Origin: Fimicolochytrium jonesii
Lineage: Eukaryota
Direction of reading: 5' to 3'
Length of the DNA: 64,000 nucleotides
NCBI RefSeq assembly: GCF_025526975.1
Contig: NW_026515675.1
Span: 744,001 to 808,000 of the forward strand
The notes beneath the pieces are model-generated. The model was not told the origin of the DNA, did not search any database, and saw nothing but the letters and a program-made list of their open reading frames with translations. Positions 1 through 38,421 of this stretch are shown here, piece by piece (the stretch's first letter is position 1; each line of letters begins with the position of its first letter). A program made the translations under genes and the position numbers.

Positions 1-1
1 A

Positions 2-771
2 CGGATCGCCCAATCCAAAGACCCGCAACTCGAGGAGCTTGGACGATTCTACAAGGAGCAGACGGCCTTCTTGAAGACGCTGCAGGGGGTCACGGATATA
101 CGCCACCCGAGCGCGGAGGGCATCGAGGTTGTCTGGGATCGGGGCGAGGATGCGTTTGCGGTGCTGGTGACGTTCAGGAGGGATGCGGGGAGGGCGAGTG
201 GGTGGGTTGTTGATGCGCAGGTATGATTTTGTCATTTGTTTTTCTTTTTTTTTCGCACGATTGTTAACTCTTCTTGATCGTAGTTCACAAACACACCCTA
301 CCCCTATCCCCTAACCGCCCTCCTCCAAACCGCCAACACCCATCCCACCCTCGACTCCACCCTCCGCTACCTCACCGCCACGATCCCACTGCGCACACGC
401 AACCACATCGCCCGTGAGCGCGAACTAGCCCATCTCACAACCGACGGTCTCCACCCCGACATGCATATCAGCTACGACTCGCACACGCGGCAGGTGGTTG
501 TGCATGTCGACACAACTGGACGCACGTTTGTGCTGTTTTTGGGGGAGGGATATCCGGGAAGTGGGATGGAAGGGGTGGAAGTTGTAGGCGTGGAGCCGAG
601 AGTGAGTGAAAGTGAGGGTGTGGAGGGGTGGACGGTATGTATCGTGTTTGGTGTATATAATGAGTGCGTGGGTGATTCATTCATTGTGTTGACTAACTTC
701 ATGGTTTCTAGGACCGGCTGAGAGCGAGTGGGGCAAGGTGCTTCAAAGATGTCTTGGGTTTGTTGCAGTGA
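2..771 (+). CDS. 3' part of a spliced gene truncated by the window start; unknown protein, possibly tandem RWD-like (kinetochore-type) folds
   Basis: Exons 2-220, 284-634 and 712-771 join in frame across GT..AG introns 221-283 and 635-711 (branch GACTAAC): RIAQSKDPQLEELGRFYKEQTAFLKTLQGV...VVVHVDTTGRTFVLFLGEGYP...DVLGLLQ*. The fold guess is weak inference. Confidence 0.55.
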
Positions 772-1368
772 GGAGGGGATGTGGGATCAGGGTTTGATTA
801 GGATGGAAAGGAGTTGTTGCAGGTGTACCGTATATGTATGTGTAGATGGCCTCGTGTGGTGTTGACGAGTGGGGCGACGTGCTTGGCAGTCTTGCCATTG
901 TTGCGGTGAACTGGATTGGGAGTAGGACGGAAGCAGGGACGGAAGGCCGTCCTTCACGCGTACTTGGACAGACACTCCTTCGTTCAACCGCATATTTGGA
1001 TCGAGCTACGACATCCTGAATACAATGCTGGAAAAACTTTCTCATGGCTGTTGCTGAGGAAAAGATAACATGTTTGTTGGCGCGGAATGTTGAGGTGGTT
1101 GCCCCCCATCAGCGATGCCCAACACATAGTGACTCCTGCAATCCAATTTATGGATTTGATGATACACAACCCCTATCCAGCAAAGTTGCCCGGGATATAT
1201 GTGATAGAACCCATCGAAACATGAATCGATATGACCAATCCACGTACAAGCAAGAGGGAAGCGGTTCCACCCAGGATGTAATGGATGCCAGTGCTTGCAT
1301 ATTGCATCATATCTTTTTGGAGGAACATCCACGATTTGCGAACGGATGTTTTGTATGGCCCGTGTGAA

Positions 1369-3797
1369 ATGATGAAAGAGTGGAAGAGGAGTTCTTTGTC
1401 CGAAAACAACGGAGACGCTTCTTCCAACGCGTCCCTGCTCACGCCGAACTTGCTCTCACACGATCTGACATTGAACACCCACCACATTGCAAGAGAAGAT
1501 ACCCATATATACACACCCCTTCAGACAGCAAGCAAACGGCAGAGCATCGGCATGATCAGCGACGCCACCAACAGAATGACCAACACCACGCGTCCCTCAC
1601 CGACACCCGTCAACTTGCAAACCCCCTCCCGCTCCCTCCGCGCCCGTATTACCCGCGTCGATTACAGCAATTCCGGCACGGGCAAGTCCGCGCGGCGGCG
1701 CGGGACGAGTAGCAGGGCGTCGAGTGTGTTTACGGATGTTGGGGAAGGGCATGAGGGGAATGAGGAGAATGTTAATGTCGGGAGTCCATTGCCTGGTATG
1801 TGTGGGTGCGTTCTTGATAACGATAACGGGGGAAAGAAGAGGAATGCTAAAGGGGGGTTTTGGAATGGCAGTGAAGACACCAGTGACACCGGCGTTCCGA
1901 AAGGCGGGATCGACGGGGAGTAACCATACGGCGTTCAAGCTTGGCCCTGCGGACGATATTTTCAGCAACATCGAGGTGTCGGCTGAGGATACCATCATAG
2001 GTGCGTTCGGGGCATAGGGTTATCATTGGGGGGTACATAGATCTGATGTGTTTTCTCTTCACACGCATACAGAACAACCCCACCCGCTAACAACCCTCTT
2101 TGACGGCTTCGCAAGCATCCTGGGACTCCTGTGGAGAATGACGCTTCTGCCCTGGAAATGGATGTACAAACGTCGCGCGGCGCTGAAGCTCATCGTCGTC
2201 TTCCTCATCGTTTCCACACTGTTTTATTTTCTAAGGGAGTATCAGCCGTCGAGGGGAGAGAGGCATTATGTTCGGGTGCCGGTGGTTGATACGAAGCCAT
2301 CGCTGCCGCTGCCGCCAACGGAACAGGATTCGGATCAGGAGTGGGAGAAGGTTAGGCAGGAGTATCCCAGGTTGAGTGACGGGATCAAGCGCGTGCAGGG
2401 GACCGTTGAGGTGTTGGAGACAAGGGTTCAGGAGACGGAGACGCGGTATGACGGGTTGGAGAAGAATGTTCAAAGTCTGGAAACGAAGCATGATGGGCTG
2501 AAGACACAGCATGAGGAGCTGATAACTCAGCATGAGGGGCTCGCCACGGTTGTCGCGGATCAGAAACGCAGTATTGAGAATGTTGTGGATAATGTGCAAG
2601 CTGTGGAGCGAAAACAGGCGGAGCACAATCAGAAATTGGATGAGCTTCGGCAGGCGCGGGATGAGGACCAGGACCGCATGCGGAGGGAGTTGGAGGCTGC
2701 AGAGCAGAAGCGAGCAGAACTTGCGACTCAGGTTGACAACCATGGAATAAAGCTGTCATCTGTGGAGACCAACGCAAACCGCCTAGAGACCAAAATCGAC
2801 TCTGTGCGGGACGCGTGGCGAGAAGAGCTAACCGCCACCGAGAAAACCATGAACACAAAAATCGACCACAACATCCTCTACCTCCGCGACGACTACACCC
2901 GCCTTGCGCTACATGTCTCCGACCTCGCAGAAGTCGTCCTTAAAGTTGCCAGCAACCCGCGCCGCCACAGCGAAGACCTCCTTCCACCGGACTACGCGCT
3001 GGGAAGCGGCGGGGGGAGGATTATACCGAAGTTGACGTCTATGAGATACTCGGTGGGCTTTGGGACGCCGTTTTTGGATTTGGTGGGGTATAAGAGGAAG
3101 CCGGGGAAGGATCCGATGACGTTGTTGCAGCCGGAGACGCAGCCGGGGAATTGTTGGCCTATGAAAGGTGAGCAGATATACTCTCTGGAGTGGGGATAAA
3201 TGATTCCCTCTCGGCGCCGGGGGTGATTGATTGTCTGGCATCCCTCACTGATAGAGTTTGTTTCCGCTCATAGGCAGCATCGGTCAATTCGGAATCCAAC
3301 TCATCCGTCCCATCATCCCCACCGCCCTCACAATCGAACACGCGCCCAAAGAATCCTGGACCTCTCACGAATCCATCTCCGCCCTCCGGCATTTCGAACT
3401 GTACGCCGTCTACAACCCCTCCAGCACCTTCGAAACCGCCGCGGCCGCCAATGCAACAAATACCGACATGGACGCCAACGCCACCACTCCACCGCCGCGC
3501 CTACACCTCCTCACCGCTGAATTTAACCCGCATGTTTCTGCGACAACCACATTCGCGGTTCCCGGGACGGTGGTTGAGGCGTTGAGGGGGGTTTTGGAGA
3601 GGACGGGCGTGGCCGTGCCGGCGGTGATGGTGAAGGTGAAGGGGAATTGGGGACATGAGGAGTGGACTTGTGTTTATCGGGTTAGGGTGCATGGGGAGCC
3701 GGTGGGGGATAGGGGGTTGGAGAAGGCGGGGGAGGAGGAGGGAGCGGTTGGGGAGGTGGTGCGGGATGGGAGTGCTGATGTTGGAGACGGGGTTTGA
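1369..3797 (+). CDS. SUN-domain (Sad1/UNC-84) inner nuclear membrane protein; start codon uncertain
   Basis: Disordered N-terminus, TM helix (LKLIVVFLIVSTLFYFL), long coiled coil, SUN motifs DYALGSGGGRII, PGNCWPMKG, TIEH, NWGHEEWTCVYRVRVHG. Introns ~1796-1871, 2001-2072, 3168-3273 join ORFs 1285, 1724, 2048 and 3258. Confidence 0.9.
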
Positions 3798-4092
3798 GGC
3801 GGTAGCTGGGTTATCATTATTGTGTGCGGTGGCAGCTGTCCAGCGTAAGTGTCATACGCATTGCAAGCTTTGCAAGGGTGCTCATCCAATCACGGCGCTT
3901 TTTGCGAAGTAGCCCTAGTAGCCCCCCGAACCACAATAATCTCGACTCCTGACACAAACTGGTCATAGAAACCCCTGCTTCTGAAGCTATCCGCGCCACC
4001 AACCACACCTTCCCCGAGTAGGTCGGTAGAGCCACTACCATTAAGCATACCCTCAAAGCCACCTCGGCTTGCGGATCGCTACCGGTTAATCC

Positions 4093-5679
4093 ATGTCCTG
4101 GCTCGGGAAGCTGTTTCGTCAATATAACGCGCCGGTCGACTTCTTCGCCCGCTCGAAGGAACTCCTTAGGAAACACAGGGATCCCAGAGAGTTATGCGAA
4201 GCGTTGTTAGAAACCTTCGAACCGCCATTAGGCTCGGCGGCAGCGGAGGGTTTCGTTCGACAAATCCTTGTAGGGCTGGAACGGCATGGACAGCAAAGTC
4301 TGGAAGCCGATGATGTTACCTTCGTCGTAGATGGCACCCCGGCTTCGAGTCCCGCGCTCCGCAAACGCCTTAACGCTGCAGCACCTGAATTCACCCCGTC
4401 GTCCTCCCCCGTCCCCAGAAGAGCCGAAGACGTCGAACCACCCGCGGATGCCGCTGACGAGGAGTATCTCGATTATGAAGAGGAACACGGATACAGCACA
4501 CTATCACCGGAAGAGATATTACAGTCCGTATTCATGGACTTACCGGTGGAGGAAATCCGAGACAGCTTGATCGCCAACGGCTGGAACGTTGAGCGAACGC
4601 TCGAAACTCTTCTGACGCCGGAAGTGCCTCACATCCAATTGGACGCAAACTACGACCGGCCCACGCAGACGAGCACAGCTATAAGCACGCAAAATGTGCG
4701 CCCCGTGTGCCGGCACTTTCTAGGAGGTAACTGTTACAGGTCGGATTGCTGGTATTCCCATGATCCAGAGGGTCTGGTCTGCAGATATTGGTTGTCCGGT
4801 GGATGTATGAAAGGCACGGCTTGCCCGTTTACCCATGGCTCCGACTTGCTGGGGCGCACAACAGAGACTGCTCAAAGGTCCCATCCAAGCATACCACAAC
4901 CGGCACGACCCCCAGCGGAGGACTTTCCGGCATTATCAGCAAGCAAAGGGCCAGCGAGAGCGAAACTCGATTTCTGGGGTCCTACCCAAAAATTTGTCGA
5001 TGTGGCGAGGAAGAAGCCAGCGAAAGGATCTCTTCCGCCTTCTGTTTCGAATACGAATGCACCGTCTGCGCTGGTGCCTTTGAAACGCTCAACGACTCTT
5101 GTGCAGGCCAAGTGGGTAAGCACTGGCGATACTCTGGCTGCGACCTATACCCAATTTCGCCAAGAGGCCATTGACGCAGCTATTCAAAGAAACAAGCTAT
5201 TTCAGAGGTGGGCAATTCATCAAGTGAACATCACTTGGAAGCATCATCCCGCTAATACGAGCTTTTCCAGGGCTACGCAGGCTTACCTTTCGGGAAACAA
5301 GGCAGCAGCCAAAGCATTCTCACTTGGAGCTCATCGCATGAATGAGCGAGTAGAAGAACTTCATCGGCAAGCCGGAAAGCGCATATACGCAACTCGCAAC
5401 GCCTCGCACACCGTCAACGGGAATGGTGATGTCCAAGTCGACCTGCATGGCTTGCATCCAAGCGAGGCGGTGGAGATGCTCGAATCCAAGATCGCAAACC
5501 TCAAACGGCAGAATTTTTCTGGGAGGCTGATTGTAGTGACGGGCACCGGGAACCACAGTCGCGGGCAAAAGGCCAAATTGCTTCCAGCCATCCGAGAGTA
5601 CTTGCAGCAGAAAGGCCTCCGGGCGCAGGAATCGAGCATGTCAGATAGGCGGGGCGGGGCCTTCACAATAAATATATAA
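4093..5679 (+). CDS. PAM2 / CUE-like / tandem CCCH zinc finger / DUF1771 / Smr-domain protein (putative mRNA-surveillance endonuclease)
   Basis: LNAAAPEFTP (PAM2); CRHFLGGNCYRSDCWYSH and CRYWLSGGCMKGTACPFTH (CCCH); VDLHGLHPSEA and VVTGTGNHS (Smr). In-frame 63-nt intron 5208-5270 is read through by the ORF track. Confidence 0.9.
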   Translation: MSWLGKLFRQYNAPVDFFARSKELLRKHRDPRELCEALLETFEPPLGSAAAEGFVRQILVGLERHGQQSLEADDVTFVVDGTPASSPALRKRLNAAAPEFTPSSSPVPRRAEDVEPPADAADEEYLDYEEEHGYSTLSPEEILQSVFMDLPVEEIRDSLIANGWNVERTLETLLTPEVPHIQLDANYDRPTQTSTAISTQNVRPVCRHFLGGNCYRSDCWYSHDPEGLVCRYWLSGGCMKGTACPFTHGSDLLGRTTETAQRSHPSIPQPARPPAEDFPALSASKGPARAKLDFWGPTQKFVDVARKKPAKGSLPPSVSNTNAPSALVPLKRSTTLVQAKWVSTGDTLAATYTQFRQEAIDAAIQRNKLFQRWAIHQVNITWKHHPANTSFSRATQAYLSGNKAAAKAFSLGAHRMNERVEELHRQAGKRIYATRNASHTVNGNGDVQVDLHGLHPSEAVEMLESKIANLKRQNFSGRLIVVTGTGNHSRGQKAKLLPAIREYLQQKGLRAQESSMSDRRGGAFTINI

Positions 5680-6210
5680 AGAACGTAAACACAACGAAAA
5701 ATTGATGGCGTATGCACATTACTCGTACTCGTAAAACCCAGATGGCTTCAAGAGCAGATCCGAGCGCATTCCTCAGCACACATCATTCATCATTGAGAGA
5801 ACGGCACGTAGAGATGAGATGTGTTGCATTATAGAAAGTGAAAACGTGTTTGACAAAGGATGTGGTCAAAATGATCAGAATGAGATGTGTTGTGCAATGT
5901 GAAAGTCAAAGATCAGATACCATATTCATGCATTCACGGAGAGTGTAAATGTTTTCGGCAGAGCGAGGTCATCAAAATGAGGTCTGAGATGCATGCATGA
6001 TGAAGACCAAAGATAGACGTGATGTGCATGCATTATGGAAAGTGAAGATGTATGTGACAAACAGAGGAGGGTGCCCGGGAACTGTGATGCTATGTACAAT
6101 GCGGGATGGGTACAGACAAGAAAAGAAGAAAAGAAATGCATGCTAAACTATATTTTTATTGCTCTACCGATGCGAGGACAACAACGGACTGGGCGGCAAT
6201 AGGGGAGTAT

Positions 6211-7140
6211 TCAGTAGCTGGAGTACCCAGCCTTGTCGGCATCATCGCGCTTGTAGTTCTCGTGCTCGTAGTCGTTGTAGTAACCGTCGTTTTCGGCGTC
6301 ACCGCGCTTGTAGTTCTCGTGCTCGTAGTCGTTGTAGTAACCGGCCGTCTCGGCATCATCGCGCTTGTAGTTCTCGTGCTCGTAGTCGTTGTAGTAACCG
6401 TCCTTTTCGGCGTCACCGCGCTTGTAGTTCTTGTGCTCGTAGTCGTTGTAGTAACCGGCCGTCTCGGCATCATCGCGCTTGTAGCTCCCGTAGCCAGCAT
6501 CGGTGGCAGCGTCGTCGCCGCGCTTCACCTTGTACCCGTAGCCCCCGTAGCCAGCATCGGCGGCAGCGTCTTCGCTTCGCTTCACCTTGTACCCGTAGCC
6601 CCCGTAGCCAGCATCGGTGGCAGCGTCGTCGCCGCGCTTCACCTTGTACCCGTAGCCCCCGTAGCCAGCATCGGCGGCAGCGTCTTCGCTTCGCTTCACC
6701 TTGTACCCGTAGCCCCCGTAGCCAGCATCGGCGGCAGCGTCTTCGCTTCGCTTGTACATCCGGCCCCTGCGGTGGGAGTCCCTGTCCCATTCGTTGTTCT
6801 GTGTTGGTGCGAAAGTGATGGAAAGTGATGGTAAGTAGTCGGCAGAAAGCTTCTCTCTCTCTCCCCAAATCGCCGGTTTACTTACGTTGGACATGTAGTA
6901 GTTCTCGTGCTTAGGACGGCGATGCATGTTGCTATAGCCGTAGTCGTTGCGGTAACGGTTGTTCTCCATGTAGTAACCGCGGCGACCAAGGCTATCAGCA
7001 GAACCGGAGTCGGTGGTGTCGACTGCAACGTCATGGTTAGCAGCGACGGTGGTAGTGGCCACGGCGGGAGCAGTAGGCGCGGCGAGGGCACCACCGAGAG
7101 AAGCGAGAGTGAGAGCGGTAAGAGCTGCGGAGATGTGCAT
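6211..7140 (-). CDS. Secreted Kex2-processed repeat protein (KEP); Tyr-rich peptide precursor, ~280 aa after splicing
   Basis: Signal peptide MHISAALTALTLASLGGALA; in-frame 87-nt intron 6799-6885 (GTAAGT..CAG); then KR-terminated units SEDAAADAGYGGYGYKVKR / GDDAATDAGYGGYGYKVKR and DDAETAGYYNDYEHENYKR / GDAEKDGYYNDYEHENYKR. Confidence 0.88.
   Translation of the reverse strand: MHISAALTALTLASLGGALAAPTAPAVATTTVAANHDVAVDTTDSGSADSLGRRGYYMENNRYRNDYGYSNMHRRPKHENYYMSNVSKPAIWGEREKLSADYLPSLSITFAPTQNNEWDRDSHRRGRMYKRSEDAAADAGYGGYGYKVKRSEDAAADAGYGGYGYKVKRGDDAATDAGYGGYGYKVKRSEDAAADAGYGGYGYKVKRGDDAATDAGYGSYKRDDAETAGYYNDYEHKNYKRGDAEKDGYYNDYEHENYKRDDAETAGYYNDYEHENYKRGDAENDGYYNDYEHENYKRDDADKAGYSSY
6244..6756 (-). 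repeat. Coding tandem array of 57-bp units: two repeat families, each with alternating A/B variants
   Basis: Four 57-bp GYGGYGYKVKR units, one shortened bridging unit (GYGSYKR), then four 57-bp GYYNDYEHENYKR units, directly visible in the sequence. Confidence 0.95.
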
Positions 7141-7267
7141 AATTGAGCGTTGTTTTTGATTGATGAAAGATGTGTTTGGAGAGAGAATGTGTTGATACTG
7201 TTGGAGTTGTTGGTTGGAGTGATGGTTTGAAGTGTTGGTGTTGGAGCTGTGTGTGAGAAGGGTCTTC

Positions 7268-7274
7268 TTTTATA
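7268..7274 (-). promoter_or_regulatory. Candidate TATA box of the KEP gene
   Basis: TATAAAA on the minus strand ~130 nt upstream of the ATG at 7140, followed by a CA-rich 5' leader. Confidence 0.5.
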
Positions 7275-8141
7275 CTCGAAAGCCGTTGGCTCCGATTTCA
7301 AAGTCCATACCTGACCACAGCAGCGCAACAGTAGAGCGAAGCCTTTGCACTGCATGCTCGCCGTGAGGGGATGTTACTGATCCGAGTCGTCCGCAGAGCG
7401 GCCGGGTGCCATGCGGCGAGCAGAGTAATCCAAACGATCGCAACCGCCGTGTCCGCACCGGTTTGCCACTGCCATGCCGGCCACCATCACCCCCGCGCTA
7501 TGACCATCTCGGAGCGGCCGTCGGACGGCAGCGGTCAGCAATCACTCTCTGATTGGAACAGGCGGATTTCGGATGTCTGGGAAAGCAAGCGGCTTCAGAC
7601 CGTCCAGCGGCGGATCCTGCCGTTCTATCATTGAAGACCGGGGTGTGTGAGGGACGGGGGGAATGCGCTATGACAGGCTGTCAAACTGTCAGAACGCCGC
7701 ACCTGCTGTCAATTTCGGGTCTCGCCTCAGGCACATCTCAAACTCCGTTTTCCGGGAATCTCCTTCCGCCACATGCGGCCAACCGTCTGTTTCCGCTTGC
7801 AAAGGATAGCGAGGACCGTGACAAATGCCACACCAACATCACCTATCCACGCGATCCGAATTGCGGTAGCGTCCGCGATCGTCCGCCTCTTAGATCTAGA
7901 CTTCGCCTCATTACCAAGCATTTGATTTTCCCTCGTAGGAAGAACACGCGGTAGTCCAAACAGAAAGCTTTGAGAACCAAGCCTTGTTCAGGCGCAAAGA
8001 ATTTATTTGCAATTGCAAATTTGTAATGAACGAAGGATGTCGAAATTCATGCGAGGTATAGCACAAAGAGGGATTGATACTGAGTGAATGCTCTATCTAG
8101 GAACGAGGTCTAGATGCTCTATCTAGGGGTAATGAATGCAT

Positions 8142-11008
8142 CTAAGCTAGGACGACCTCCCAGTCGTCGCCAAGTCTGACGTTGACCTCGATCTTGGTCT
8201 TATTGCCCTTGACGTGAACAGCGACGTTCTTGGCCTTGCCGTTGACGACGAGCTTGGCGCTCTTGACCTCCTTGTAGCCGACAAGAGAAACGTACTTGAT
8301 GTGGGTCGGGTCCCTCTTCTGGAAGTGGTTCTTGGGAGAGAAGGGGATTTCACCGAGACCGTTGGTGTAAACCGACTTCTTGCCGGCAAGAACGTCGCAA
8401 GACTTGATGGTCTTGCCTTCCAAAGAAACCTCCTTCCAGATGTAGGCGCCCTTTTGATTTTCAAAGGAGGTTCCGTCGTCGTGGTAGATCTTCCCAGAGG
8501 CCGTGCCTTCCTTGGAAACAGCGACGATGACCTCCAAAGGCAGGACCGAGTGAGTTTTTGATGATCCGTCGGTGACGCCGAATCTCGTCGGAAGGACGGT
8601 ACCACCGCGGACGAAGGCAGCGATGGTGTCCCAGGGGGCCTCAACTTCGTACAATCCCTTCTTGTCGACCTTAGCCCAGTCGAAGAGATTGTAGTAGCTC
8701 TGGTCCTCGGCAATGTAAATGGTCGTCTTTGTGACGTTGGGCGCCGCTACGGGCTTCACGAGAATCGACGATCCAAAGAAATATTGGTCGTCGTATTCGT
8801 AGGCTTGTGGGTTCTGAGGGAACGAGGCGAACATCGGACGCAGGAGCGGATAGGGCTGAACGGCGTGCGAGAAGAACTCGGTGTAGATGTACGGGAGCAA
8901 CGTGTAGCGGAGACGTATGGCCTTTCGGATGGCCGTGGTGTAGGGTTCGCCGTACACCCAAGGTTCGCGGCGGGCACTGTCCTTGTCGGAGTGTCCACGG
9001 AAGAATCCAGTGAAAACGGCGGAATTGTACCTTGTATAGATATTCAAATGAGTTTCCATGCTAAGAACCTAAGGTGAAAACATTGACACTCAATGATAAC
9101 CTACCAACGAGTCAAAAGCTCCCCACCCGGTCCCATTCCTGGCTCGCTGATGAACCCTCCAATGTCGCCCCCAGCGAATCCATATCCACCAAGCGCGAGC
9201 CCCTGAAGTGTCGGCGATGCCACTTGCAAGTGTTCCCAGGTCGACTTCGAATCACCCATCCACATGGCACCGTAGCGTTGACTTCCAGCAAAGAAGGAGC
9301 GGGTCAGGATGAAGGGACGTTGAGTGTACTTCTCCTTCTTAAGATGGCCGAGATACGAGGAGGCGAGCATGAGGGAGCCAACCATGTTGTGCACCGCCCT
9401 ATGCTCAACACCGTTGACGTGAAGGTTGTCACGCGGGGAAGATTTGTCCGGGCCGGCGAAGACAGCCGGTTCGTTCATGTCGTTCCATGTGAACAAATAC
9501 TTTGTTTGTTCCGGGTACTTCTCGTAGGAGAAGAAGCTCGCCCACAGGCTCCTCGCGTTGGGGTTCAACCAGTCGGGCCAAACCGCAAGCGTTCGGCCCA
9601 TCGACTCATCGATGTTGCTGGGCCAGCATTTGCCCTCGTAGACGGATTTGTTGGCGGTCTTCATCAATAAGTCTGCGTTCAGGAACTGTTTGTAGGCAAA
9701 GTACTTGGAATCCTTGGCCAAATGGGGGTCTTTGATGGTGACCATTTGACGGTGCTTCTTCTCCCCAAAGTAGTTTTGCAGACCAACGGGGTCTTCGAAG
9801 CGAGTGTGGTTCCAGGTGAAGTACCTCATTCCCGATGTGTGGTCAATGTCGAGCCACATGACGTCGTAGGGGATGGAATGTTCGTCGAAGCCGCTGTCGA
9901 CGGCAAGAACGTCGGAGGTGTTCATGTAGGAGTATCGGCATTGGTGGTAACCGAGCGCGAAACGCTGGGGGAGCTGCTGGGAACCAGTGAGCTCAGCGTA
10001 GGAGCGGGAGACCTCGAGGGCGGACTTGCCGAAGAAGAAAACGAGGTCGATCACACCGTCCTCGGACATGAAGTGCGTAGTGGTAGAGTTGTTCTCGCGA
10101 GAGATGTCGACCCAAGCCTCGGCGGGGTTGACCCAGAAGATACCAGCGGCCTGGCCGGGCTTCTGGGCAATGATGAGGGGAATGGCACCGTAGTTGGCAG
10201 CGTTGCTGGGCACGGGGTACGCGTAGGTGTCCGTGTTCCAGAAGCGGTAGGGGTCCTGCCAGTAGGCATCGGCGCCACGGGTGGACTTGAGGTTCAAGGA
10301 AGGCGAGGCGTGCTCGGGGATTCCAGTGACAAAGTCGAAGCCGGGGAATGTAATGTCGGCGGCCACGGATGTAGGGCGGTTGCCGTGCTTGTCGGTGTAG
10401 GTGATGATACCGGTCTTGTCGACCCAGTCGTTGACCTCCGTAATCGTCTCCCAGTTGTCGCCCTCCTTCTTCTTCAAGCTGTTCTCGAAGTTGAACCAAC
10501 CCTTGGAGTTGACTTCAGCGATAGGCTTTCCATCGACGCGGGCAGTCAGTTTGAAAGGCTTCTTCTGGATGAGTACTTCTTTCGCACCGTACTTGACTAG
10601 GATGGTCTTCTCCGTCTCCTTCTTCTCGAGCTTGGATAAGTCGATGTTCTTCGGGTCGTGCTGGAAGGCATGTTTGTAAGCGCCATCGTAACGGACGTGA
10701 GCGGGATTCTCCTCGTTGACGATGAAGCGAGCGGCGTGAGTGTTTTTGAGGAAGGAAAGCTTGAAAGTCAGCTTCTTCTGGGCTTTGCTGTTGTAGATCT
10801 TTCCGACGACAGCGTTCTTGGCATGGTCGAACTCGGCGGACCACAGGGAGTAAGGGCTGTTGGCGGCCGTCCTCGTGTCAGCGATGTTGCGGTTACGGAC
10901 GCAGTAAGGGGTCGTGGTGCAGTTGTGGAAATCAGGCGGGTCGGCAACGACTCCGCGCGCCAATGCGGCGATCGCGAGAGTCGCAGCGACGAGGGGTTTG
11001 AAGACCAT
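8142..11008 (-). CDS. Glycoside hydrolase family 31 alpha-glucosidase (glucosidase II alpha-like) with signal peptide
   Basis: Signal peptide; LGYHQCRYSY, WLDIDH, catalytic WNDMNEP, RPFILTRSFFAGSQRYGAMWMGD, FFRGHS, RREPW. One intron 9031-9104 joins ORFs 9101-11008 and 8142-9059 (LLTRW|YNSAVF). Confidence 0.95.
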
Positions 11009-11081
11009 CTTCAGATTTGTCGTGTGAGTTACGAAACCTGAAAGGTGCTGAAGGCGAAGGGGATGAGGGATGGCGTCGGAG

Positions 11082-11088
11082 TTTTATA
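11082..11088 (-). promoter_or_regulatory. Candidate TATA box of the GH31 gene
   Basis: TATAAAA on the minus strand ~75 nt upstream of the ATG at 11008. Confidence 0.45.
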
Positions 11089-11774
11089 CACTGCTATGAA
11101 GCCGGGTTTGCCAACGCCCATTCTTCACGGAGCTCTCTCGACAACAACTAAAAATTGGCCTCGCTGTTCTTGTATCCCGCCGGCTTCACGAGAGACGCCC
11201 GGTACAGATGGCCGGCGTAGCCCAAAGTTCCGACCACCAACTTCGAAATATCTCTTTTCTCGAAGTCCGCCGCCGGGGCTTGGTCGTAGAAATTATTGTA
11301 GGACCAACCGGCCGTGGGTAGCCTTTCCTCTCGACCCCAACTCGCTGGAAGTTTGACAGATCCTCGCACTTTACGCTCGGAAGCGTCATTCCGGTGTGTC
11401 ATCGATTGAGGGATGAACGGGCGACCGACGGTGGGAAATTGAGTTTGAAGGTGAGGACCCCCTTACCAAATCCCAGCTTCTCCCGAGAGCTCCTATGAGG
11501 CCAACATCCGCCCTCGTGACAGTTTTTCGTGCACATCATGAGACCTTCAGAAGTTGTATATTTAGTTCCTCATGAAATATCCAAATTACATGATTCCTGT
11601 TCACTTGGTCCCGAGTCGGCGGCCGGAAGCGTCAAAATGCCAAATGAAGGGAAGTTGTAGATATATGTACGCCCTCGGAGGATTCTACCGAGCTCCGGTA
11701 CAGGGGTCGCTCTATAGTGCCCCGCCATCGAGGGTGCTGTGAAAGCCCCACGAAAGAGCTTCAGCGGCTTCCAG

Positions 11775-11842
11775 CGGCTGGCAAACCAAAATACAACCCC
11801 CACGTTGTCGGCTGGCAAACCAAAATACAACCTCCACGTTGT
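11775..11842. repeat. 34-bp intergenic tandem duplication with one mismatch
   Basis: cggctggcaaaccaaaatacaacc(c/t)ccacgttgt occurs twice, back to back. Confidence 0.9.
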
Positions 11843-12476
11843 CCCGTACATCAGACTGGGATACCTCGTCACCCGATAGAGGCGCAGGTTGGGATCTGGG
11901 GCTTTCAGGCACCAAGAAACCTGATGAGTGTGGCTGGTGGCTCTCAACAAACTTATGCCTACGTTATGAAAGGGCGCCGACGATCGGTTACGGTATCCGT
12001 GGGGGAAAGTGTACGCCAAGTGACGGTGCCTCCAAGCGTAAGGAAGCCAAATTGCTGTTGACAGCTGCTTTGACAGCATGCTACGCGCTGTCGGAATTGG
12101 TTTCCATTCGCAGTTCGCCCGCGCCCGTCTGGGAAATCCGTGATCAGGACATCACCATGCGTTTCGTGGACGCATATCAGGTCCCCAGAGAGCACCAGAG
12201 CCCAAGGCCCTAGACTATGTAGGTACAGTACAGGCATACACATGCATGTACGTATATGTACAGCAGCAGCTTGCAGCGCAAGAACATTGAGTGAGCGATG
12301 GTACGGACGACAAAGGGTATACGAATTGGATGGTATGATACAGTTCGGAAAAAGTGCGTACATATGATACAGAAAAGACAGCGTGAAGAACATCACGACG
12401 TTGCAGAATCGGGAAAAGGTCAATTTTCGAGGAAAGCAGAACTACTCTATCAAAAGCCATCGTTGGGCACCTTAGT

Positions 12477-13733
12477 TTAGTTGGGAGGGATCGAGGGAGT
12501 GGGGATGGGATTCGCAAGGACGTATTTGAGGAACGCCTTGACGCCGGCAACGATTTCATTGCCTGTGGGGACGATCTGGGACGCTGGAAGGACGAACCCG
12601 TAGTTTCCGGTATCCCTCAGCTCAATGGTGTATCCGACCATCTTGGCTTTGGCGTTCATCCAGTCGTCGGTTGCGCCCGAGGCCGGGTACAGGTCAGCGC
12701 CGGCTTCGGAGGTGTATCTCGTTCCGGACTGGGCGCGGATGGCATCGCGGACACCATCACCCAAAGCCTTGTACTTGGCGGCGTTGTCAGGAGCGGTGTC
12801 GGTCCATCCCCATGGACGCAGAATCAACTGTCCGTAAGAATGGAAATCGATCCCGGCAAGGCGGTTGGGGATCTTGGTGACAAAGGAAGTGAGAGCCTTG
12901 TTCTCGAGCTCGGACCCAGGGCCGCTCCCGGGGAAGGTCTCATCGCACGGGTCGGACGATGTGCCCGCAACCGCCCAATGCTCATTGAAGTTACGATTCA
13001 AATCGGTCCCTACGCAAGAGCTTCCAGGGTTCTTTCTACGGTTCTTCCTCCACATCCGGTCGGTCTGGGTGTATACGTATCCGTCGGGGTTGGAGACGGG
13101 GGTAATATAAAAGTCGACCTTGTCGAGGTACGCGGCTAACGCCGGGTCGGAGCCGGTCAAGAGAACGTTGGCGAGGTACATAACGGTGGCGGGCGATATC
13201 CATTCACGAGCGTGGATGCCGCCGTTGAACCAGATGGCTTTCTTGGTTGAAGACGAACCCTTGGAGATCTTGAAAGCGGGGATGGCACGATTCTCAACGG
13301 TGGTTCCAATTGAACCGAGATTGGTGAACAGCGCGGGGTACGCCTTGGCCCAATCGGCGATCTTGGTGTTGATTTCGGCGTACGTGCGGTACTTTGAGAA
13401 AAACGTGTCGCTGGTCTGCCGACGGTCCAGGGTTGCCGGCTCGTTCTCGGTCTTGATGAGCCGAGCAATGTCCTCAATGAAAGAACCGCATTGAGCGCCG
13501 GTTGCCTCCAGGGCTCGTTGCTGCTCGGCGTTGACTCGAATGTCGACGGGGCGGTTCAGGCCGATGTGATGTGACCATACATCGAGTTTTGCGGACTTGA
13601 TATGCTGAACTTGTGCATCGTCGTTGAGCGTGCATCGGAGCACCTGCTGGTCACGGTAGGGATTCGGCGCAGGCGATGCAAGAACTGCAGAGACCGCAAG
13701 GGCTAAAGGCGCAAGGGATGAGAACCAGCTCAT
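12477..13733 (-). CDS. Secreted M14A zinc carboxypeptidase with prodomain; carboxypeptidase B-like S1' pocket
   Basis: Signal peptide; prodomain ending in LDRR; GIHAREW, WRKNR, DLNRNF, DFHSYGQ, YPASGATDDW, YTIELRD. Intronless, 418 aa. Confidence 0.95.
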   Translation of the reverse strand: MSWFSSLAPLALAVSAVLASPAPNPYRDQQVLRCTLNDDAQVQHIKSAKLDVWSHHIGLNRPVDIRVNAEQQRALEATGAQCGSFIEDIARLIKTENEPATLDRRQTSDTFFSKYRTYAEINTKIADWAKAYPALFTNLGSIGTTVENRAIPAFKISKGSSSTKKAIWFNGGIHAREWISPATVMYLANVLLTGSDPALAAYLDKVDFYITPVSNPDGYVYTQTDRMWRKNRRKNPGSSCVGTDLNRNFNEHWAVAGTSSDPCDETFPGSGPGSELENKALTSFVTKIPNRLAGIDFHSYGQLILRPWGWTDTAPDNAAKYKALGDGVRDAIRAQSGTRYTSEAGADLYPASGATDDWMNAKAKMVGYTIELRDTGNYGFVLPASQIVPTGNEIVAGVKAFLKYVLANPIPTPSIPPN

Positions 13734-15622
13734 GATGAAATGTGACAGAAAAATTTGGAAGTGTGGGTGCTGCAGGTATGGGGAGTGGATACGACGCTGC
13801 TTCCTTTTATGCGATTCGGGGATCTATGGCGATGGTCTTTGTTCCTTCGTTCTTCTGGTGTCATCTTCTACGTCCCAGGCACGTAAACGTATCTCTCATA
13901 TTCTTCCATAGGGCTCGCGGCGGGCCGAGATCAAACACAATGATCCCACTGATTGGCAGCGGCATCATGGGTGGGCGTTTACCCCGACGACCTCTAGTAT
14001 GTTCCGTCCCATGCTGTACATGTATCAAAGTCAGAGATCCCATCTCAGGCGTCTGCGTGATAGGTATTGACATCCGAAATGCACCAGCATACAGTATACG
14101 TGGTCCCTGTCCACAGCCAGATTGGGAATGTCACGGTGCATGATCAACACGCAGGCTGGGTTATATGCATTTTAGACAGACGCTGCCTAAGCCGCATGGA
14201 TCCGGGGAGATTGATTGTGCCTGCGTACTGATATACGGGGTAAAAGCAGCCTGTTGCTGGCTGGATGCGGATGTCTGATCGCTGAGGCTGCTGCCTATCT
14301 GTGAGATGACGACGCCAGGGGCAAAATACGCGTGGGCGCAACGCGTATACGCACTGTACTGTACTTTAGAGTTTACCGTATGTATGTACATACCTATATA
14401 TAAGCCGCGGGGATCAAGAATCCAGATCCAGGGTGCTCTTCTGATCAGGATTCGGACAGCGCAAGCACCTCCCCTCGTTTGCATCCCTCGTCGTTCAAAT
14501 GGCAACCTGAGCCCTCATGGAGTCCGATCACAGGGCTCGCATGCATGATGCACACTATCAATACGAAGATATCTCGCACGCCGGTCATGTACGGTACGCT
14601 ATGTAACCCGTGGGGTCTGGAGCCATGGGCGCGGATAAGCAATACGGCTTGGCGCCGAATATCACCCGCCGTAATAGTTCTTGTCACTTGGTCGTTTCTG
14701 GGTGGTATGAGATCTCAGATCAGGGAGATGTGAAGAGCTCGCTGACGTCAGGTTCTTGAGGATACCATTCACCATACAGTCACAAACTAATTATCGTGTT
14801 CAAAACGGGAATCAGTAAACTACCGGAGTATTAAGCGTTTGAACCTAAAGTTACATATCTAGACCTAAGCTACAGACGCCCGAACGTTCTCCCCAGAGTC
14901 ACCCGATATGGTTTCCACGAACCTCCAGAATGTCTCTTTGAACTCCTTGCCACCGCAGGCGTAACAACAAAATGCACCCCAAGCATCGAGGCGTCAAGGG
15001 AATTCCAGGGGGTTGTCGGCGACCAAGGGTCACTCGAAGTTGCTTGATGAGAACCACCAATAGTTCGACGGTGAGACGGCCGGTAGCCTGACGCTCCTGT
15101 TCCGACATCTAAAATGCAGCACGCACATCGAACACGGTCATTTTCATCCCACCGCTTCCGTTGACGGTGGTGGTGGGAAACATGGGCAGATCGGGACCTA
15201 GACGGTGCACGTGGGAAAATGAAGAGAACGAGGACATACCGTCAGGAGAAATCACCGGCCAGTCGTGGGAACGTGGCCACCGTGGGCAGATGAGGATATG
15301 TGGCAGAGGTCGGTAACGCTCTCTCATGCGGAGTTATCGCACACCAGTGCTGTTGGAGACTGTATATGTACTGGGACGTTCTCTCATAGGTCGGATCCAT
15401 CTATCTACGTACATCAGAAATCTTGCGAATTATGCGATGCGTTGGCCTCCCTGACCGTAGGCGCACGACACGCACTGTGGTTTCGCTGGCTTGGGTGACA
15501 CGAAAGACTTGAGTTCGAAAAGAGCGTCCAAAAGCGTTCAAAATTGTATACAATAATCAGCAGAAGAAAGCCCCAGACATCCCTCTAATCTAATCAGCGT
15601 CCTCCAAGAAAATCAAACGGCT

Positions 15623-18272
15623 TCATGCATAATGTTTCGTCTTGCCCACAAGCCCTCTTGCAGACGGCGGCGCCTTTGCATCATCCTCCGCCTGCAACTT
15701 AGTCGGCGTCGGCGTAGCCACATTCTTCTCCCGACTCCCCTTCGTCGGCGTCCGTTTAGCTCCCACAGTCCCCGGCCTCTTCCCTGACGGCCGATCCCCG
15801 CTCCCCAACCCCTTCTTCCCCATCTCCCCCCCACCAGCCGTCTTCTTCCGCTTCCCGCCCGACCCCACCGGCGTGTCGTATGATAAATACGGATCCGGAA
15901 ACGCAACCATCGGATTCCACGGCGGCTCCTCCCCATCCATCCCCTGCTCGCCCGCAGGCCCATACTGATCACGATGCAGCGGCAACCCCGACACCAAGCT
16001 CCGTTTCCCACGGATATTGTTCCCGGCATGCGCGATATGCGCTATCCGCCACTTCTCGCTCGTCTCATCGTACTCGGCGAACGATTCAAGGAGCTCCAGC
16101 GAGTCCCGGGGTACGAACGAGTCGAGGACCAACATGCGGAGTTTGAGCTCGCGGGTGAGATCGCGGACTGTTTCGAGGAGCTGTTCGCGCTCGCGTTGGT
16201 GTTCTTCTTGGAGGTCTTTGATCTCGGATTTGTGCCGCATGAGGAGGGTCCAGAGTTTTTTGAGCTTTTTGGTCTTGGCCGCGGCTTCTTCCTGTAATGA
16301 TGAGAATTCTTCCTCGATCTGTAGACCTGCCTCCTCGTGTTCTTCGAGTTCCCGGGCCAGTTCACGTTCCCGTCTTGCACGTTCTTCGATCTCCTGTTGT
16401 TGTTTGGCCAGTTCCAGTTTCTGCCCCTCGTGTTTATCGATCGCGTTCACGCCCCCGATCAGCAGCTTTTGTTCCAGCTGGGAGAGTTTGGCGGTTAATT
16501 GGTTCCGCGCTTCCTTTTCGGACTCGAGCTCGGCGCCGCGGGAGTTGAGGGCGTCGAGGAGACGGTTGCGTTCGGATTCTTCAATGTCTTTGGATTCGAG
16601 GATGTGGCGTTTCTCGGCTTCTACTTGTTCTTGCATCTCGACTAGCATCTTTTCGTGGTCTGGATGCGATAGTTGTGCACCACCGCCGCCCGGAGCGGAT
16701 GCTCTGGTATCTGTGCTGGGTGGGGCGGCTACTTTGACTTTGACCCTTTTTGCCTTTGTCTTCTTTGGCTTCTCTCCGCGGGGTTCCGGGGCCGCTCCAG
16801 GTACTTGGTCCGGGATGTCTACGTCTTCTATCTCTTCCACCTCTTCGATCTCTTCCACCTCTTGGATGATGGGTTCGCCTGTCACTCCTGTTCCGCTGCT
16901 GTCCATTTGGTCTAGCTGGGCTTTTAGGCGCTTGATTTCTTCTTGGAACTCTCTCAGCATCGCGTCCTATAGGAATTGAGGGTGCCCATCTTTAGTTGGA
17001 GCAAATGGCACCTTACAAAGCAGCACACATCAGCAAGTACCTTCGGATCCTCATTGATCTTCGGCTTATTCTTGATATTCTTCGCCCGATTCGCGTACCG
17101 CAGCGTCGACAGCGTCTCCTCAAAGTTATAACTCGCCGGACTCATAGTCGCCACCATCAACGTCTTCGCATTCCCACCCAGCGAGTCCTGCAACAGCCGC
17201 GTGAGCTTCGAATCCCGATACGGGATATGCGAGCTCTTCCCATCCACCAGCGTACTAATGACGTTCCCCAACGCCGACAGAGACAGATTGATCTTGGTGG
17301 CCTCCTTCAACCGATCCCCGGTCGCGCCAGTCTTGCCCTGCCGTTCTGAACCAGCCAGATCGACCAAATGCAGTTTTCCGGCGCGGATGTGCTCTTCCCC
17401 ATCTTGGCCCTTTTCGCTGGCTTCGACTGTGATGCTGAAAATGGAATGGGAGCGTGAACTCGTCGCGTTCATTTCCGTCGCGCCGACGGAGCGGTTCTTG
17501 TTTCCAAACGACATCAATCGGTCCATCTCTTCCACATCCTTGATCACGAACGTCCTCAGGTCCTTTACGTAGATACCAATATCTGCGCGCTCCTTGATTT
17601 CTAGCTTGCCGGCTTTCGGGTTGAGGAGATCTCTGATGTCCTCGTTGTAGATCTCGAGGTAGGATGCTCGAACCAGGAACTGGGTGGATTTGTCCGCCAT
17701 GGAGATTTCGGCGAAGATGTGCGCAAAGGCGTTAGGGATGATTCCTCGCAGCTCTGGGACATCGCGGATGCCCTCCATGGAGAAGGTCTACCACCCGATA
17801 TCTCATTAGCCTTCGATGAATATATTCACATCTTGCCAAGGCCTAATCACGAACCTTTCCGGTGCCCGTTTGCCCATATGCAAAGATCGTGCCATTGTAA
17901 CCATTAAGTACACTCTCGATGATGGGTCTCGCCGTCTTATTATAGACCTCCTGCTGTGTACTGGAGATATCAAACACACTATCGAAGGTGAATGTCTTTG
18001 GGAGATCGGAGGCGCTCTTTGGGTTTGTGATGGCGACAGTCGCGGCCTCTTTGCTTATCGCTACGATATTCGAGTGTCCGGCGGCCTTCTCTTTCTCACT
18101 GAAGGGTCTACATCTGACTACGACCTTGACCGCCTCTCGTTCCTGTACGTGTGCGAGTATAATAGGTAGGTCAATGAGCAACGCACCAAGCAAGCTTCCA
18201 CGCGTTGAACCTGACGTGGACGTGTCTCTCCTCTAACACGGCGGCCCTAGGACAGCGGACACTCACCGACAT
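15623..18272 (-). CDS. KIF3A: Kinesin-2 motor subunit, KIF3A/FLA10-like (intraflagellar transport)
   Basis: 6-nt first exon ATGTCG (18272-18267); [64 protein letters not shown]; stalk KKLWTLL...LQEEHQRE matches the KIF3A type. Confidence 0.92.
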
Positions 18273-18993
18273 GACTGTACGTGGGAAGTGTGTGTGTCGC
18301 TGACTGACTTACCGGACGTAGCAGGGGTCTGGTTGCGCCGGGTGAGTGGGTGGTGCAGACAGCGGACAGCCCAGGCGGTGGAGCCGTGCGGTGTTTCTGG
18401 CGGTTGGGACGCGTCGCTCCCTCAGACTTTCTAAGCAGGCAGGCTTCTCGGGCTTGTGATCGGATGGATTGACGCCCCTGTCGCAAAAGTTTCCCGTCAG
18501 TACAGTCTCTGACGGCATAGGAATATGCTACTGAGTGGTATATCAGTGTTCGTAGACCCCGCTCAACGACTGTGAATGAACGCCCGGTGGATCTGGAGCA
18601 ACGGGCTGATGGGGGGCCCTCTATCTCATAAATCCGGTTCCTATGTACTGTACATAGGGACAGACAGCCGGGCGACCGCAATGCCAGACGATGTAAAGAT
18701 CCACCATTGCCGGCTGCCAGTTGCATTCATATTGCAATGTAGGCCTGCATCGCATCAGCAGCGAGTGAATCATGCGTGAGATCGCACAGGGAGTAGATCC
18801 GATAGATCAACGCGGCGCGTCGCAAAGCCGTGACGTTTTGCACAAAGAAACTCAGCTGTGCGTGCGAACCTTTTTTTTCGCTCGACCCCATCACCGCCTG
18901 TTTATCACAGCTGCCACTGCGGGCAACCGCCTCTTCGCCACCGCAACATACCAACCAAACAGCTTCAAGGCTCGAAAGTTATCCAGCAACAAC

Positions 18994-20341
18994 ATGTCCT
19001 GCAAAACCATCAGCGCGGCAAATGTCGCCGAGTCCTTCATGTAAGTAGGACCCTGGCGAAACGAGCCGGCAACCGACCAAAAGCCTCGTTTGGACCCTGG
19101 GAATTCGAGGCCGAAACCTTCCCAAGCTTCTCGTCTTCAACCGACTGCGAAAACTGACGGTATGCGTTTGTTATTTCAGCTCCGAGCTTAAGCAACAGAT
19201 CACAGCCTTGGAAACGAAACCATTACTCGTCGCGTTCCTTGCCAATGAGGACCCCGCTGCCGCCAAATATGCCGAGTGGAGTGCAAAAACGTGTGCAGAG
19301 ACCGGGCTGAGGTTCGAGTGTAGGCGATGCCCACGAACGGAACTGGAGGACCGCCTCATTGAAGCGAATGAGGATAAGAATGTTCACGGGATTATGGTCT
19401 ATTATCCCGTCTTTGGCGGAACACAGGTTTGGTTGGTCTTCTTGTAACGGAGGCGCAGGGTAAAAGACTAAACCTCTCGATGGCTGCAGGATGGATACAT
19501 ACAAAACATCGTGAGCCCGCAAAAGGATGTGGAAGTAAGTCGCTTGTGTCTGCAACTTGAACGTCCGTCTTCCCTACCGCACGAGACTTAGGCGCGTTTT
19601 CTGCCCTCATTAGGGCCTCTGTTTCAAATACAGATATAACATGTACCACAACGTGCGATACCTGGATAAGGAAAATACCATCAAGTGCATACTTCCATGC
19701 ACGCCATTGGCATTGGTCAAGGTATAATATCGCATTCATCGTCTTCGCGTTATGTCTCCAAATGCCTAGTCTCACACGTTCACACCCCAGATCCTAGAAT
19801 ACATCGGCGCATACAACAAGATACTCAACTACGGCGACCGTCTCCACGGCAAGACCATCACCATCATCAACCGAAGCGAGGTCGTAGGTCGTCCATTGGC
19901 GGCTCTTCTCGCCAACGACGGCGCCAAGGTGTACTCAGTCGATGTCGATGGAATCATGGAGCTGCATAGAGGACAAGGGTTGCATCTGAAGAAGCATGAG
20001 GTGCGATCCACCGTCCCTCTCCCCGTTCCGCCCCCAGAGTCGATCACTAACAACCTGTTTCCGCGCACACCCAGGTCTTCGAAACAGACTGCACCCTCCC
20101 CGAAGCCCTCTCCCGCTCCGACATCGTCATCACCGGCGTCCCGTCCCCCACCTACAAGCTCGAAACCGCACAACTCAAAGACGGCGTCATCGCCGTCAAC
20201 TTCTCCACCGCCAAAAACTTCCAGGACGATATCAAGGGCAAAGCGTCCATATACGTGCCCTCGGTCGGTAAAGTCACTGTTGCGATGCTGCAGAGGAATC
20301 TGTTACGGCTGTTTGAGTATCAGACCAAGGTGAAGATATGA
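18994..20341 (+). CDS. MTD1: NAD-dependent methylenetetrahydrofolate dehydrogenase
   Basis: Spliced: PLLVAFLANEDPAAAKYAEWS, VHGIMVYYPVFG, KDVE|GL, ILPCTPLALVK, INRSEVVGRPLAALLANDGA, YVPSVGKVTVAMLQRNLLRL. Divergent from the kinesin gene. Confidence 0.93.
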
Positions 20342-37876: not shown

Positions 37877-38421
37877 ATCAGCTTTTCCAAATCAGCTCCC
37901 TATTAGATAGCGCTCCATCGTCTCCCCCCTTGTATAGTTTCTTTGAGTTTATAGTTCTGTGGATATTCCCCCGCCCCCCGTCATTAGACATTTTCTGTAC
38001 ATAGAATGCAACGCAGTTGTTGTAAATCATAAAGCCAAATTGAGCGTTTTTTCCTCATACTTGAACGTTCCACGTTTCTTTCGCTTCTTCTCTTCCTCTC
38101 CGACCCGCGGCCTCTTCGATGTCGCAACGAGCACTCATCTGGCACTTCCTCACGCGTTTTCTCCCCCCGCTCGTCCTGTCAAAGCCCTGTCAATTGCGGC
38201 CTATCTCATGCCTGCGGTCACATCAACTGAGACCCCTCCACACACACGTCCTCATTAATGCGGTCCCCTTTCGCAGTTGTGGAGAGCGCCTTGTTTCTCG
38301 TTTCTCCGGCGATCTGCTCAGAGGGATAAAACCAACTCGTCTTATCGTTTAAAGGAAAGCTGTACAACACTTCCTCTTTGTTCAATCACAACGCGAGAGG
38401 TTGACAACGAACAACCTCACG

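Follow-up and report, generated by a model that had tools for sequence, protein, structure and literature searches.

The 64-kb window analysed here (64,000 nucleotides of contig NW_026515675.1, with positions counted from its first letter) carries on its minus strand an open reading frame (ORF). Most probably this is a genuine gene, so far without annotation, of a Spizellomycetales-like chytrid, and its product is predicted to belong to the Kex2-processed repeat proteins (KEPs); we put the probability of this reading at about 0.62. The ORF can be read directly from the sequence at 7140..6211, with an ATG at 7140 and a TGA at 6213-6211, as 309 codons for 309 amino acids, and the locus forms a separate unit between the Smr gene (ending at 5679, + strand) and the 3' end of the GH31 gene (8145, - strand). 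A first-pass annotation of this DNA had placed an ORF with a signal-like start and ten KR-delimited units here, and it is indeed present at exactly those coordinates. In-silico cutting of the 309-residue protein at each KR or RR divides it into 14 fragments.

Repeat architecture and predicted processing

Two families of repeat units can be recognized in the ORF. Those of family 1 conform to [S/G][E/D]DAA[A/T]DA-GYGGYGYKV-KR, and those of family 2 combine a spacer of the form DDAETA or GDAE[K/N]D with GYYNDYEH[E/K]NY-KR; each family is represented by four units of 19 residues. Besides these there are two short units, namely GDDAATDA-GYGSY-KR and the C-terminal DDADKA-GYSSY. Each of the ten cores starts with Gly-Tyr, just as the first-pass annotation had it, and the spacer types that it listed (SEDAAADA, GDDAATDA, DDAETA and GDAEKD) all occur, although the list was incomplete in lacking GDAEND and DDADKA. 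Tyrosine contributes 2-4 residues to every core of 5-11 residues and makes up 15% of the mature protein. All 13 dibasic sites of the ORF fall at fragment boundaries, and the remaining 15 Lys and Arg residues are without exception single. The KR pair is thus placed only where a unit ends or begins, and it is retained in two unrelated-looking repeat types as well as in both short units.

At the nucleotide level, Tandem Repeats Finder recovers two arrays with a 57-nt period, at 6222-6491 (4.7 copies) and 6481-6753 (4.8 copies), of which the former additionally displays a 114-nt superperiod with 94% matches, indicating growth by two-unit steps. Comparison of alternate units reveals differences at 9 of 42 spacer positions versus none of the 72 positions of core plus KR (Fisher p = 7e-5). 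The family 1 cores are identical in nucleotide sequence, and the sole change on the core side is a synonymous CGA/CGC exchange in the Arg of KR. Alternate units of family 2 differ at 5-6 of 18 spacer nucleotides versus 0-1 of 39 core nucleotides. This contrast fits purifying selection acting on the cores and the cleavage sites, with the qualification that the repeat copies are not independent, being products of tandem duplication. A common origin of the two families is not shown by their alignment, the score of which was matched by 7% of codon shuffles.

Upstream of the repeats lies a more degenerate region. The earlier description of a pro-region ending in GRR and followed by ten units is right as to the GRR and the ten units, but a stretch of 77 residues split by dibasic sites intervenes between them. 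The GRR, which ends at residue 54, is preceded by a Thr/Ala/Asp-rich stretch that follows the signal segment; after it come GYYMENNRYRNDYGYSNMH-RR, then PKHENYYMSN...NNEWDRDSH-RR and then GRMY-KR. This Tyr-rich stretch from GRR54 to the first unit, which includes three further dibasic sites, would shrink from 77 to 48 residues upon splicing of a candidate intron at 6885..6799; the spliced pro-region would include two fragments that each have exactly 19 residues ahead of the RR and end in HRR. Read as codons, the candidate intron has a codon adaptation index (CAI) of 0.62, a GC content at third codon positions of 0.45 and an overall GC content of 48%, as against CAI values of 0.77-0.89 in the flanking coding parts. 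In size and terminal sequences it resembles introns in nearby genes (GH31, kinesin, Sec1 and MTHFD), and it lies outside the repeats. A contig from the run that we designate X2, which is about 97% identical to the window, carries a 1-base insertion at 6870, inside the candidate intron; in coding sequence such an insertion would disrupt the reading frame, though it is a weak hint in light of the low depth of that contig. Taken together, these sequence features make it probable that 6885..6799 is an intron.

The N-terminus, MHISAALTALTLASLGGALA followed by AP, displays an uncharged run of 35 residues after Met1, an Ala/Leu/Thr-rich h-region and an Ala-x-Ala site (ALA|AP). The layout ascribed to it in the first-pass annotation, i.e. 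that of fungal KEPs, was assessed against the KEP criteria that Le Marquer et al. published in 2019 (PMC6339444). The protein breaks into the 14 fragments noted above; in place of the minimum of three similar fragments there are four near-identical units per family, plus a short form of each; the repeats occupy 44% of the protein without splicing and 49% with it, the threshold being 15% or more; and the top 19-residue Kyte-Doolittle mean beyond residue 25 is 0.37, consistent with the lack of a transmembrane segment. Hence, in fragment number, similarity of fragments, repeat share and absence of a membrane segment the layout is borne out, while the signal peptide was judged by crude measures of hydropathy and of the cleavage site. 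AlphaFold2 run on the single sequence returned a mean pLDDT of 39.9, which fits disorder but is weak evidence for it; given that no fold is predicted, the dibasic sites would be exposed and accessible in such a model.

These features lead us to propose that the signal peptide would direct the precursor into the endoplasmic reticulum, that a Golgi kexin would then cut after GRR, HRR and every KR, and that a carboxypeptidase would thereafter remove the basic pair, with the resulting peptides being secreted. The HRR|PK junction may resist cutting, since Pro follows the dibasic pair. Ten acidic peptides, 11-17 residues long, are predicted to result, with net charges from about -2 to -6 and 2-4 Tyr apiece: four of the form [S/G][E/D]DAA[A/T]DAGYGGYGYKV, one GDDAATDAGYGSY, four of the form (DDAETA or GDAE[K/N]D)GYYNDYEH[E/K]NY, and DDADKAGYSSY. 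The neutral monoisotopic masses calculated for these products are 1692.727, 1678.711, 1261.473, 2066.813, 2080.792, 2067.761, 2066.740 and 1190.473 Da. Two or three pro-region fragments would be released in addition. At all ten sites following KR the P1' residue is S, G or D, the P2' residue E or D and the P4' residue A, E or D. In vitro, cleaved Kex2 sites are reported to be enriched for acidic and small residues at just these three positions, and a change from KR/D to KR/A blocked the processing of ScPir4 (PMC2515848). This match to the published Kex2 preference strengthens the case for kexin cleavage. Among 250 fungi, the data reported in PMC6339444 have KEX2 missing only in Microsporidia and five Dikarya species. 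The first-pass annotation had likened X-Ala dipeptides in the spacers, in an imperfect register, to Ste13-type trimming signals; the first dipeptide is SE, GD or DD in all ten units, never X-Ala or X-Pro, and this part of its interpretation has to be abandoned. The acidic spacers are most likely part of a good Kex2 site and, on that view, would stay on the peptides.

Support for a gene and rival explanations

To gauge coding potential we used as CAI reference ten Pfam-supported coding pieces of the window. The frame of the ORF has a CAI of 0.82, compared with 0.65-0.77 in the other five frames and 0.71-0.82 in the best neighbouring genes. In the non-repeat exon 1 the value is 0.77 in frame versus 0.65 and 0.72 in the other two frames. 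Codon choice is strongly skewed, with TAC used for 40 of 41 Tyr, AAC for all 18 Asn and AAG for 19 of 20 Lys residues, and this high bias suggests an abundant product. Furthermore, the frame extends over 131 non-repeat residues up to an ATG with a signal-like start. The listing of sequencing runs showed no RNA run with this stretch, which counts neither for nor against a gene. Parts of the gene were also recovered from two public runs that were selected by this gene itself and are uninformative on expression: X1 has a single 155-nt contig with 100% identity over 6164-6318, and X2 has two 151-nt contigs covering 6776-7059 at about 97% identity. Elsewhere in positions 1-20000 of the window these runs gave nothing other than chance fragments of 18-51 nt. 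The differences listed for the X2 variant, which covers part of exon 1, the candidate intron and part of exon 2, would replace Asn by Tyr (6888) and Gly by Ala in the context of the GRR site (6986), and they include two substitutions plus the 1-base insertion in the candidate intron; depth is low and errors are possible. It points to a related strain or species with the gene.

The searches for relatives yielded none. The word-indexed protein search gave no match at E <= 0.01, not even the protein itself, and no Pfam family, MF_alpha and MF_alpha_N included, matched the protein at E values up to 1. An exhaustive phmmer search of 1.84 billion representative proteins returned three matches (E 2.6e-6 to 7.7e-4), which we rejected, as they have only Gly-Tyr low complexity in common with the query and are devoid of dibasic-delimited units. 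Exact look-up in the protein collection recovered neither the 309-residue form nor the two + strand ORFs over the repeat. A pattern scan of metagenome contigs matched 125 stretches, none of which was confirmed by tblastn, and a scan of the same type with a degenerate 33-nt pattern of the family 2 core gave zero matches. The best language-model look-alikes among the Atlas clusters scored 0.83, 0.79 and 0.79, all below the threshold for a lead. The KEP table of PMC7329392 gives accessions only; a surveyed KEP of similar sequence should have surfaced in the exhaustive protein search. As the searches covered protein sets and metagenome contigs, there may be unannotated orthologues in other Spizellomycetales. 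Within the window itself, a scan for other ORFs combining a signal segment with dibasic sites passed three, none of them built of repeats; the hydropathy cut-off of 2.0 used in this filter also missed the precursor ORF.

Several of these observations weigh against a genuine KEP gene. The protein is missing from the public protein sets searched (the word-indexed set, the 1.84 billion representatives and the exact look-up), though the M14 protein encoded by a neighbour on the same 952-kb contig is present in them; having no relative in the protein or metagenome libraries searched, it also lacks the support of conservation across species. Two + strand frames are likewise open across the repeats, which makes the open frame in that part weak evidence. 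The signal segment is only moderately hydrophobic, its top 10-residue Kyte-Doolittle mean being 1.91, below our first crude cut-off of 2.0, versus 2.34-2.62 in five chytrid M14 signal peptides. Gene conversion confined to the cores could produce the same contrast between spacers and cores as purifying selection, and the case for a real gene is an intrinsic one, built from features of the sequence. The absence from protein sets and libraries, the openness of other frames and the modest signal segment would be expected if the ORF were not an expressed gene, i.e. a tandem repeat open by chance, or a dead or very young gene. We nevertheless regard this as quite unlikely in view of codon usage that is best in this very frame and equal to that of the best neighbours, with non-repeat exon 1 included, of the 131 non-repeat residues reaching a start codon with a signal-like segment, flanked by TATAAA and AATAAA, of the non-random pattern of spacers versus cores, and of an intron candidate that has canonical ends and keeps the frame.

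Even a real, secreted product need not be cut: it could be a disordered Tyr/Gly/Asp-rich structural or adhesive protein in which the periodic KR pairs are there for coacervation, or to pair with the charges of the acidic spacers, rather than for cleavage. The tyrosine share of the mature protein, the regular alternation of K+R with D+E, the absence of a predicted fold, the fact that the sole matches in sequence searches are Gly-Tyr repeat proteins matching by composition, and the appearance of GYGGYGY in papers on structural proteins would all suit such a protein. Yet by the account in PMC2515848 Kex2 prefers as its substrate a secretory protein in which KR is exposed and has acidic or small residues after it, and the strict placement of all 13 dibasic sites at unit boundaries, with no other Lys or Arg ever paired, together with the conservation of KR through synonymous change, renders the uncut form unlikely. 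A different possibility accepts the cleavage and makes the ORF the precursor of Tyr-cyclised peptides (RiPPs), made on the ribosome and modified after translation, of the ustiloxin/dikaritin type, or of otherwise modified peptides (with 3,4-dihydroxyphenylalanine (DOPA) or sulfotyrosine), the modifying genes being situated outside the window. The presence of 2-4 Tyr in every core agrees with this proposal, as does the setting of the family 2 tyrosines among Asp and Glu, which we take to recall tyrosine-sulfation sites. Repeats holding Tyr are also commoner in KEPs encoded beside DUF3328 genes (65.6% versus 38.2%; PMC7329392), and only 6.2 kb are visible on one side of the gene. Against it, a Pfam scan of all 197 stop-to-stop ORFs of at least 110 residues in the window (in batches of 16, 150 and 31) detected no DUF3328 (PF11807), tyrosinase, laccase, peroxidase or S8 kexin domain, the low-coordinate flank being just that 6.2 kb, and the neighbours are of the housekeeping kind; the lack of any DUF3328 or tyrosinase gene in the window had already been remarked upon from the sequence. 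Phomopsin-like precursors linked to DUF3328 were detected in Dikarya, from which the name 'dikaritins' derives (Ding et al. cited in PMC7329392, which makes no statement of absence elsewhere), and we found no literature linking tyrosylprotein sulfotransferase with chytrids. We therefore consider a modified-peptide precursor very improbable and retain the reading of the ORF as a KEP gene.

Known precursors and the possible role of the peptides

KEPs share with the predicted precursor the signal peptide, the pro-region and the tandem, near-identical short units separated by KR or RR. They have been catalogued widely: Umemura 2020 (PMC7329392) counts 7878 in 1461 fungal assemblies, of which 178 come from 19 Chytridiomycota strains, with Spizellomyces punctatus listed as having 9 and Powellomyces hirtus 0, and two repeat types per precursor are recorded for 77 of 1193 KEPs in PMC6339444. 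The first-pass description of an undescribed secreted peptide system of chytrids accordingly holds as far as the peptides themselves are concerned, which match nothing in the libraries searched, but not for the class of precursor or its possession of two repeat types, both of which have precedent. What sets the precursor apart from the KEPs at large is the lack of any sequence relative found, the absence of an annotation, the very high content of Tyr, and acidic spacers devoid of a Ste13 signature. In the literature searched, 'Kex2-processed repeat' and 'chytrid' occur together only in the two KEP surveys, and nothing was found that joins tyrosine-rich with Kex2, repeat, secreted and fungal. 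The ORF would thus add an orphan and unusually Tyr-rich example of a KEP from an early-diverging fungus. Such genes can be missing from public protein sets, and surveys based on annotation would therefore miss them; the zero listed for Powellomyces hirtus may be read with this in mind.

Among individual systems, the yeast alpha-factor precursors (MFalpha1/2) resemble the precursor in the order of their parts and in having acidic or small residues after KR, and by language-model features an Atlas MF_alpha cluster ranks within the nearest three, though its score of 0.79 stays under the lead threshold. They differ in that the precursor matches neither MF_alpha nor MF_alpha_N, has X-Ala or X-Pro after KR in none of ten units, and would yield acidic, Tyr-rich peptides of two families rather than one. 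Membership in the alpha-factor family was rejected on account of the missing MF_alpha match and Ste13 signature. Cutting of Rep1 of Ustilago maydis gives 11 peptides, which cover the hyphae in the form of amyloid (PMC3133707), and Rep1 is described as having no Ste13 signature (PMC6339444), a trait that it shares with the precursor; there is no sequence likeness between the two. The precursors of ustiloxin, phomopsin and asperipin (the dikaritin type) have both the KEP layout and a Tyr in every core in common with the ORF, whereas their defining partners, DUF3328 and in some cases tyrosinase, were not found in the visible 64 kb. The mean distance from a DUF3328 gene to its precursor is given as 3.09 genes (PMC7329392). 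On present evidence the precursor is not of the dikaritin type. Finally, GAM56 and GAM82 of Eimeria are Tyr-rich precursors of the oocyst wall, which are cut by serine proteases to Tyr-rich peptides believed to be cross-linked into the wall through dityrosine (PMC3770453); these belong to another kingdom, are not organized as tandem KR-delimited repeats and show no homology to the precursor.

As for what the peptides might do, the two families, the two short units and the degenerate fragments of the pro-region have in common a Gly-Tyr start and a density of tyrosines, not one sequence. We tentatively favour an extracellular material or surface role that depends on the tyrosines, with the Rep1 repellents and the GAM56 wall peptides as its models; this preference is drawn from composition, which counts against leaning on it heavily. 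The high codon bias likewise speaks for such a role. Papers in which the motif GYGGYGY turned up deal with a fluke eggshell protein and with keratin-associated proteins. A function as receptor ligand or pheromone is equally consistent with the layout, and we hold it to be somewhat less likely, as we do the remaining roles, such as metal binding or interaction with other organisms. Being strongly acidic and devoid of a hydrophobic face, the peptides are not expected to be of the classic membrane-active type. One might go further and envisage about a dozen kexin-freed acidic, Tyr-rich peptides being oxidatively cross-linked, via dityrosine or DOPA, into the wall of the cyst or sporangium or into a holdfast, making them a fungal counterpart of the coccidian GAM56/82 on a KEP layout; or else sulfation of the tyrosines flanked by Asp and Glu might turn the peptides into signals of a type that fungi are not known to have. 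Even jointly, these two scenarios strike us as rather improbable. The only literature match linking dityrosine with chytrids concerns the genus Aspergillus. KEPs number in the thousands, yet only a very small share of the peptides they give rise to has been observed or assigned a function (PMC9769878). If the peptides are building blocks of wall or adhesive, the gene gives a handle on chytrid encystment; if they are products of just another KEP without an assigned role, it is an ordinary gene.

Feature map and genomic neighbourhood

The features of the predicted precursor gene are listed below in the order of its transcription.

Table 1. Position of features at the predicted precursor locus (coordinates of the window)
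Feature	Position	Strand	Remarks
Putative TATAAA promoter-like box	7269..7274	-	134 nt 5' of ATG; motif search
Start codon and predicted signal peptide	7081..7140	-	residues 1-20 = MHISAALTALTLASLGGALA, AP next; read from sequence
Exon 1	6886..7140	-	signal peptide, Thr/Ala-rich pro segment to GRR54, first Tyr-rich fragment to HRR75, start of second fragment
Candidate intron	6799..6885	-	87 nt, phase 0, GTAAGT...CACAG, in frame, stop-free
Exon 2 start	6748..6798	-	remainder of second Tyr-rich fragment (...NNEWDRDSH-RR), then GRMY-KR
Family 1 array	6520..6747	-	4 x 57-nt units, acidic 8-residue spacer + GYGGYGYKV + KR
Short unit	6475..6519	-	GDDAATDA-GYGSY-KR
Family 2 array	6247..6474	-	4 x 57-nt units, acidic 6-residue spacer + GYYNDYEH(E/K)NY + KR
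Terminal unit and stop	6211..6246	-	DDADKA-GYSSY + TGA
Putative AATAAA polyadenylation-like signal	6155..6160	-	50 nt 3' of stop

The neighbours of the precursor are ordinary housekeeping genes. Those recognized in the window encode SUN, Smr, GH31, M14 carboxypeptidase, kinesin, MTHFD and Sec1 proteins, and further a MARCHF6-like ligase, a CAAX protease, a von Willebrand type D (VWD) protein, cytochrome b561, a prenylcysteine lyase and a protein that combines leucine-rich repeats with PP2C and cyclase domains. The best named matches of the M14 carboxypeptidase (12480-13733, - strand) are from Powellomyces hirtus (58% identity), Gaertneriomyces semiglobifer (58%), Spizellomyces punctatus (60%) and Fimicolochytrium jonesii (57%), genera that we take to belong without exception to the Spizellomycetales. 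The chytrid host proposed in the first-pass annotation is thereby supported, with 57-60% identity to chytrid proteins.

This M14A carboxypeptidase, itself a secreted enzyme, is separated from the precursor by 5.3 kb, a distance that takes in one GH31 gene. Where carboxypeptidases A2 and A4 have the Ile of their SIDW motif, its aligned residue is an Asp (in YPASGATDDW). The position is presumably that which holds Ile255 in A-type and Asp255 in B-type enzymes and sets specificity for C-terminal Lys and Arg. A B-type M14 enzyme, as the motif suggests this one to be, could trim the KR left after kexin cleavage. Its nearness to the precursor may be due to chance, as conservation of the enzyme extends across chytrids and the motif is common to the orthologues from Gaertneriomyces and Spizellomyces, and close variants that keep the Asp are present in Fimicolochytrium and Geranomyces.

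The intergenic stretch that separates the Smr gene from the precursor's 3' end contains a 33-nt direct repeat, with copies at 5825-5857 and 6029-6061 (+ strand) that are 85% alike and 204 nt apart, and a second repeat pair of 16 nt at 5859 and 5965. The ORF that adjoins the precursor on this side (4093-5676, + strand) combines a DUF1771 with an Smr domain; its exact 528-residue form is missing from the protein collection, and the public gene model therefore probably differs from it. Farther away, 54823-60421 (- strand) is occupied by a large gene in which an RA domain is joined to leucine-rich repeats, PP2C and an adenylate/guanylate cyclase catalytic domain, an arrangement of domains that we take to be the layout of the fungal Cyr1-type adenylate cyclases. 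The segment 35540-37891 is GC-rich (61.7% over 36001-38000) and has an open frame of more than 770 codons on each strand, with its + frame giving a weak von Willebrand type D match (E 5.8e-6).

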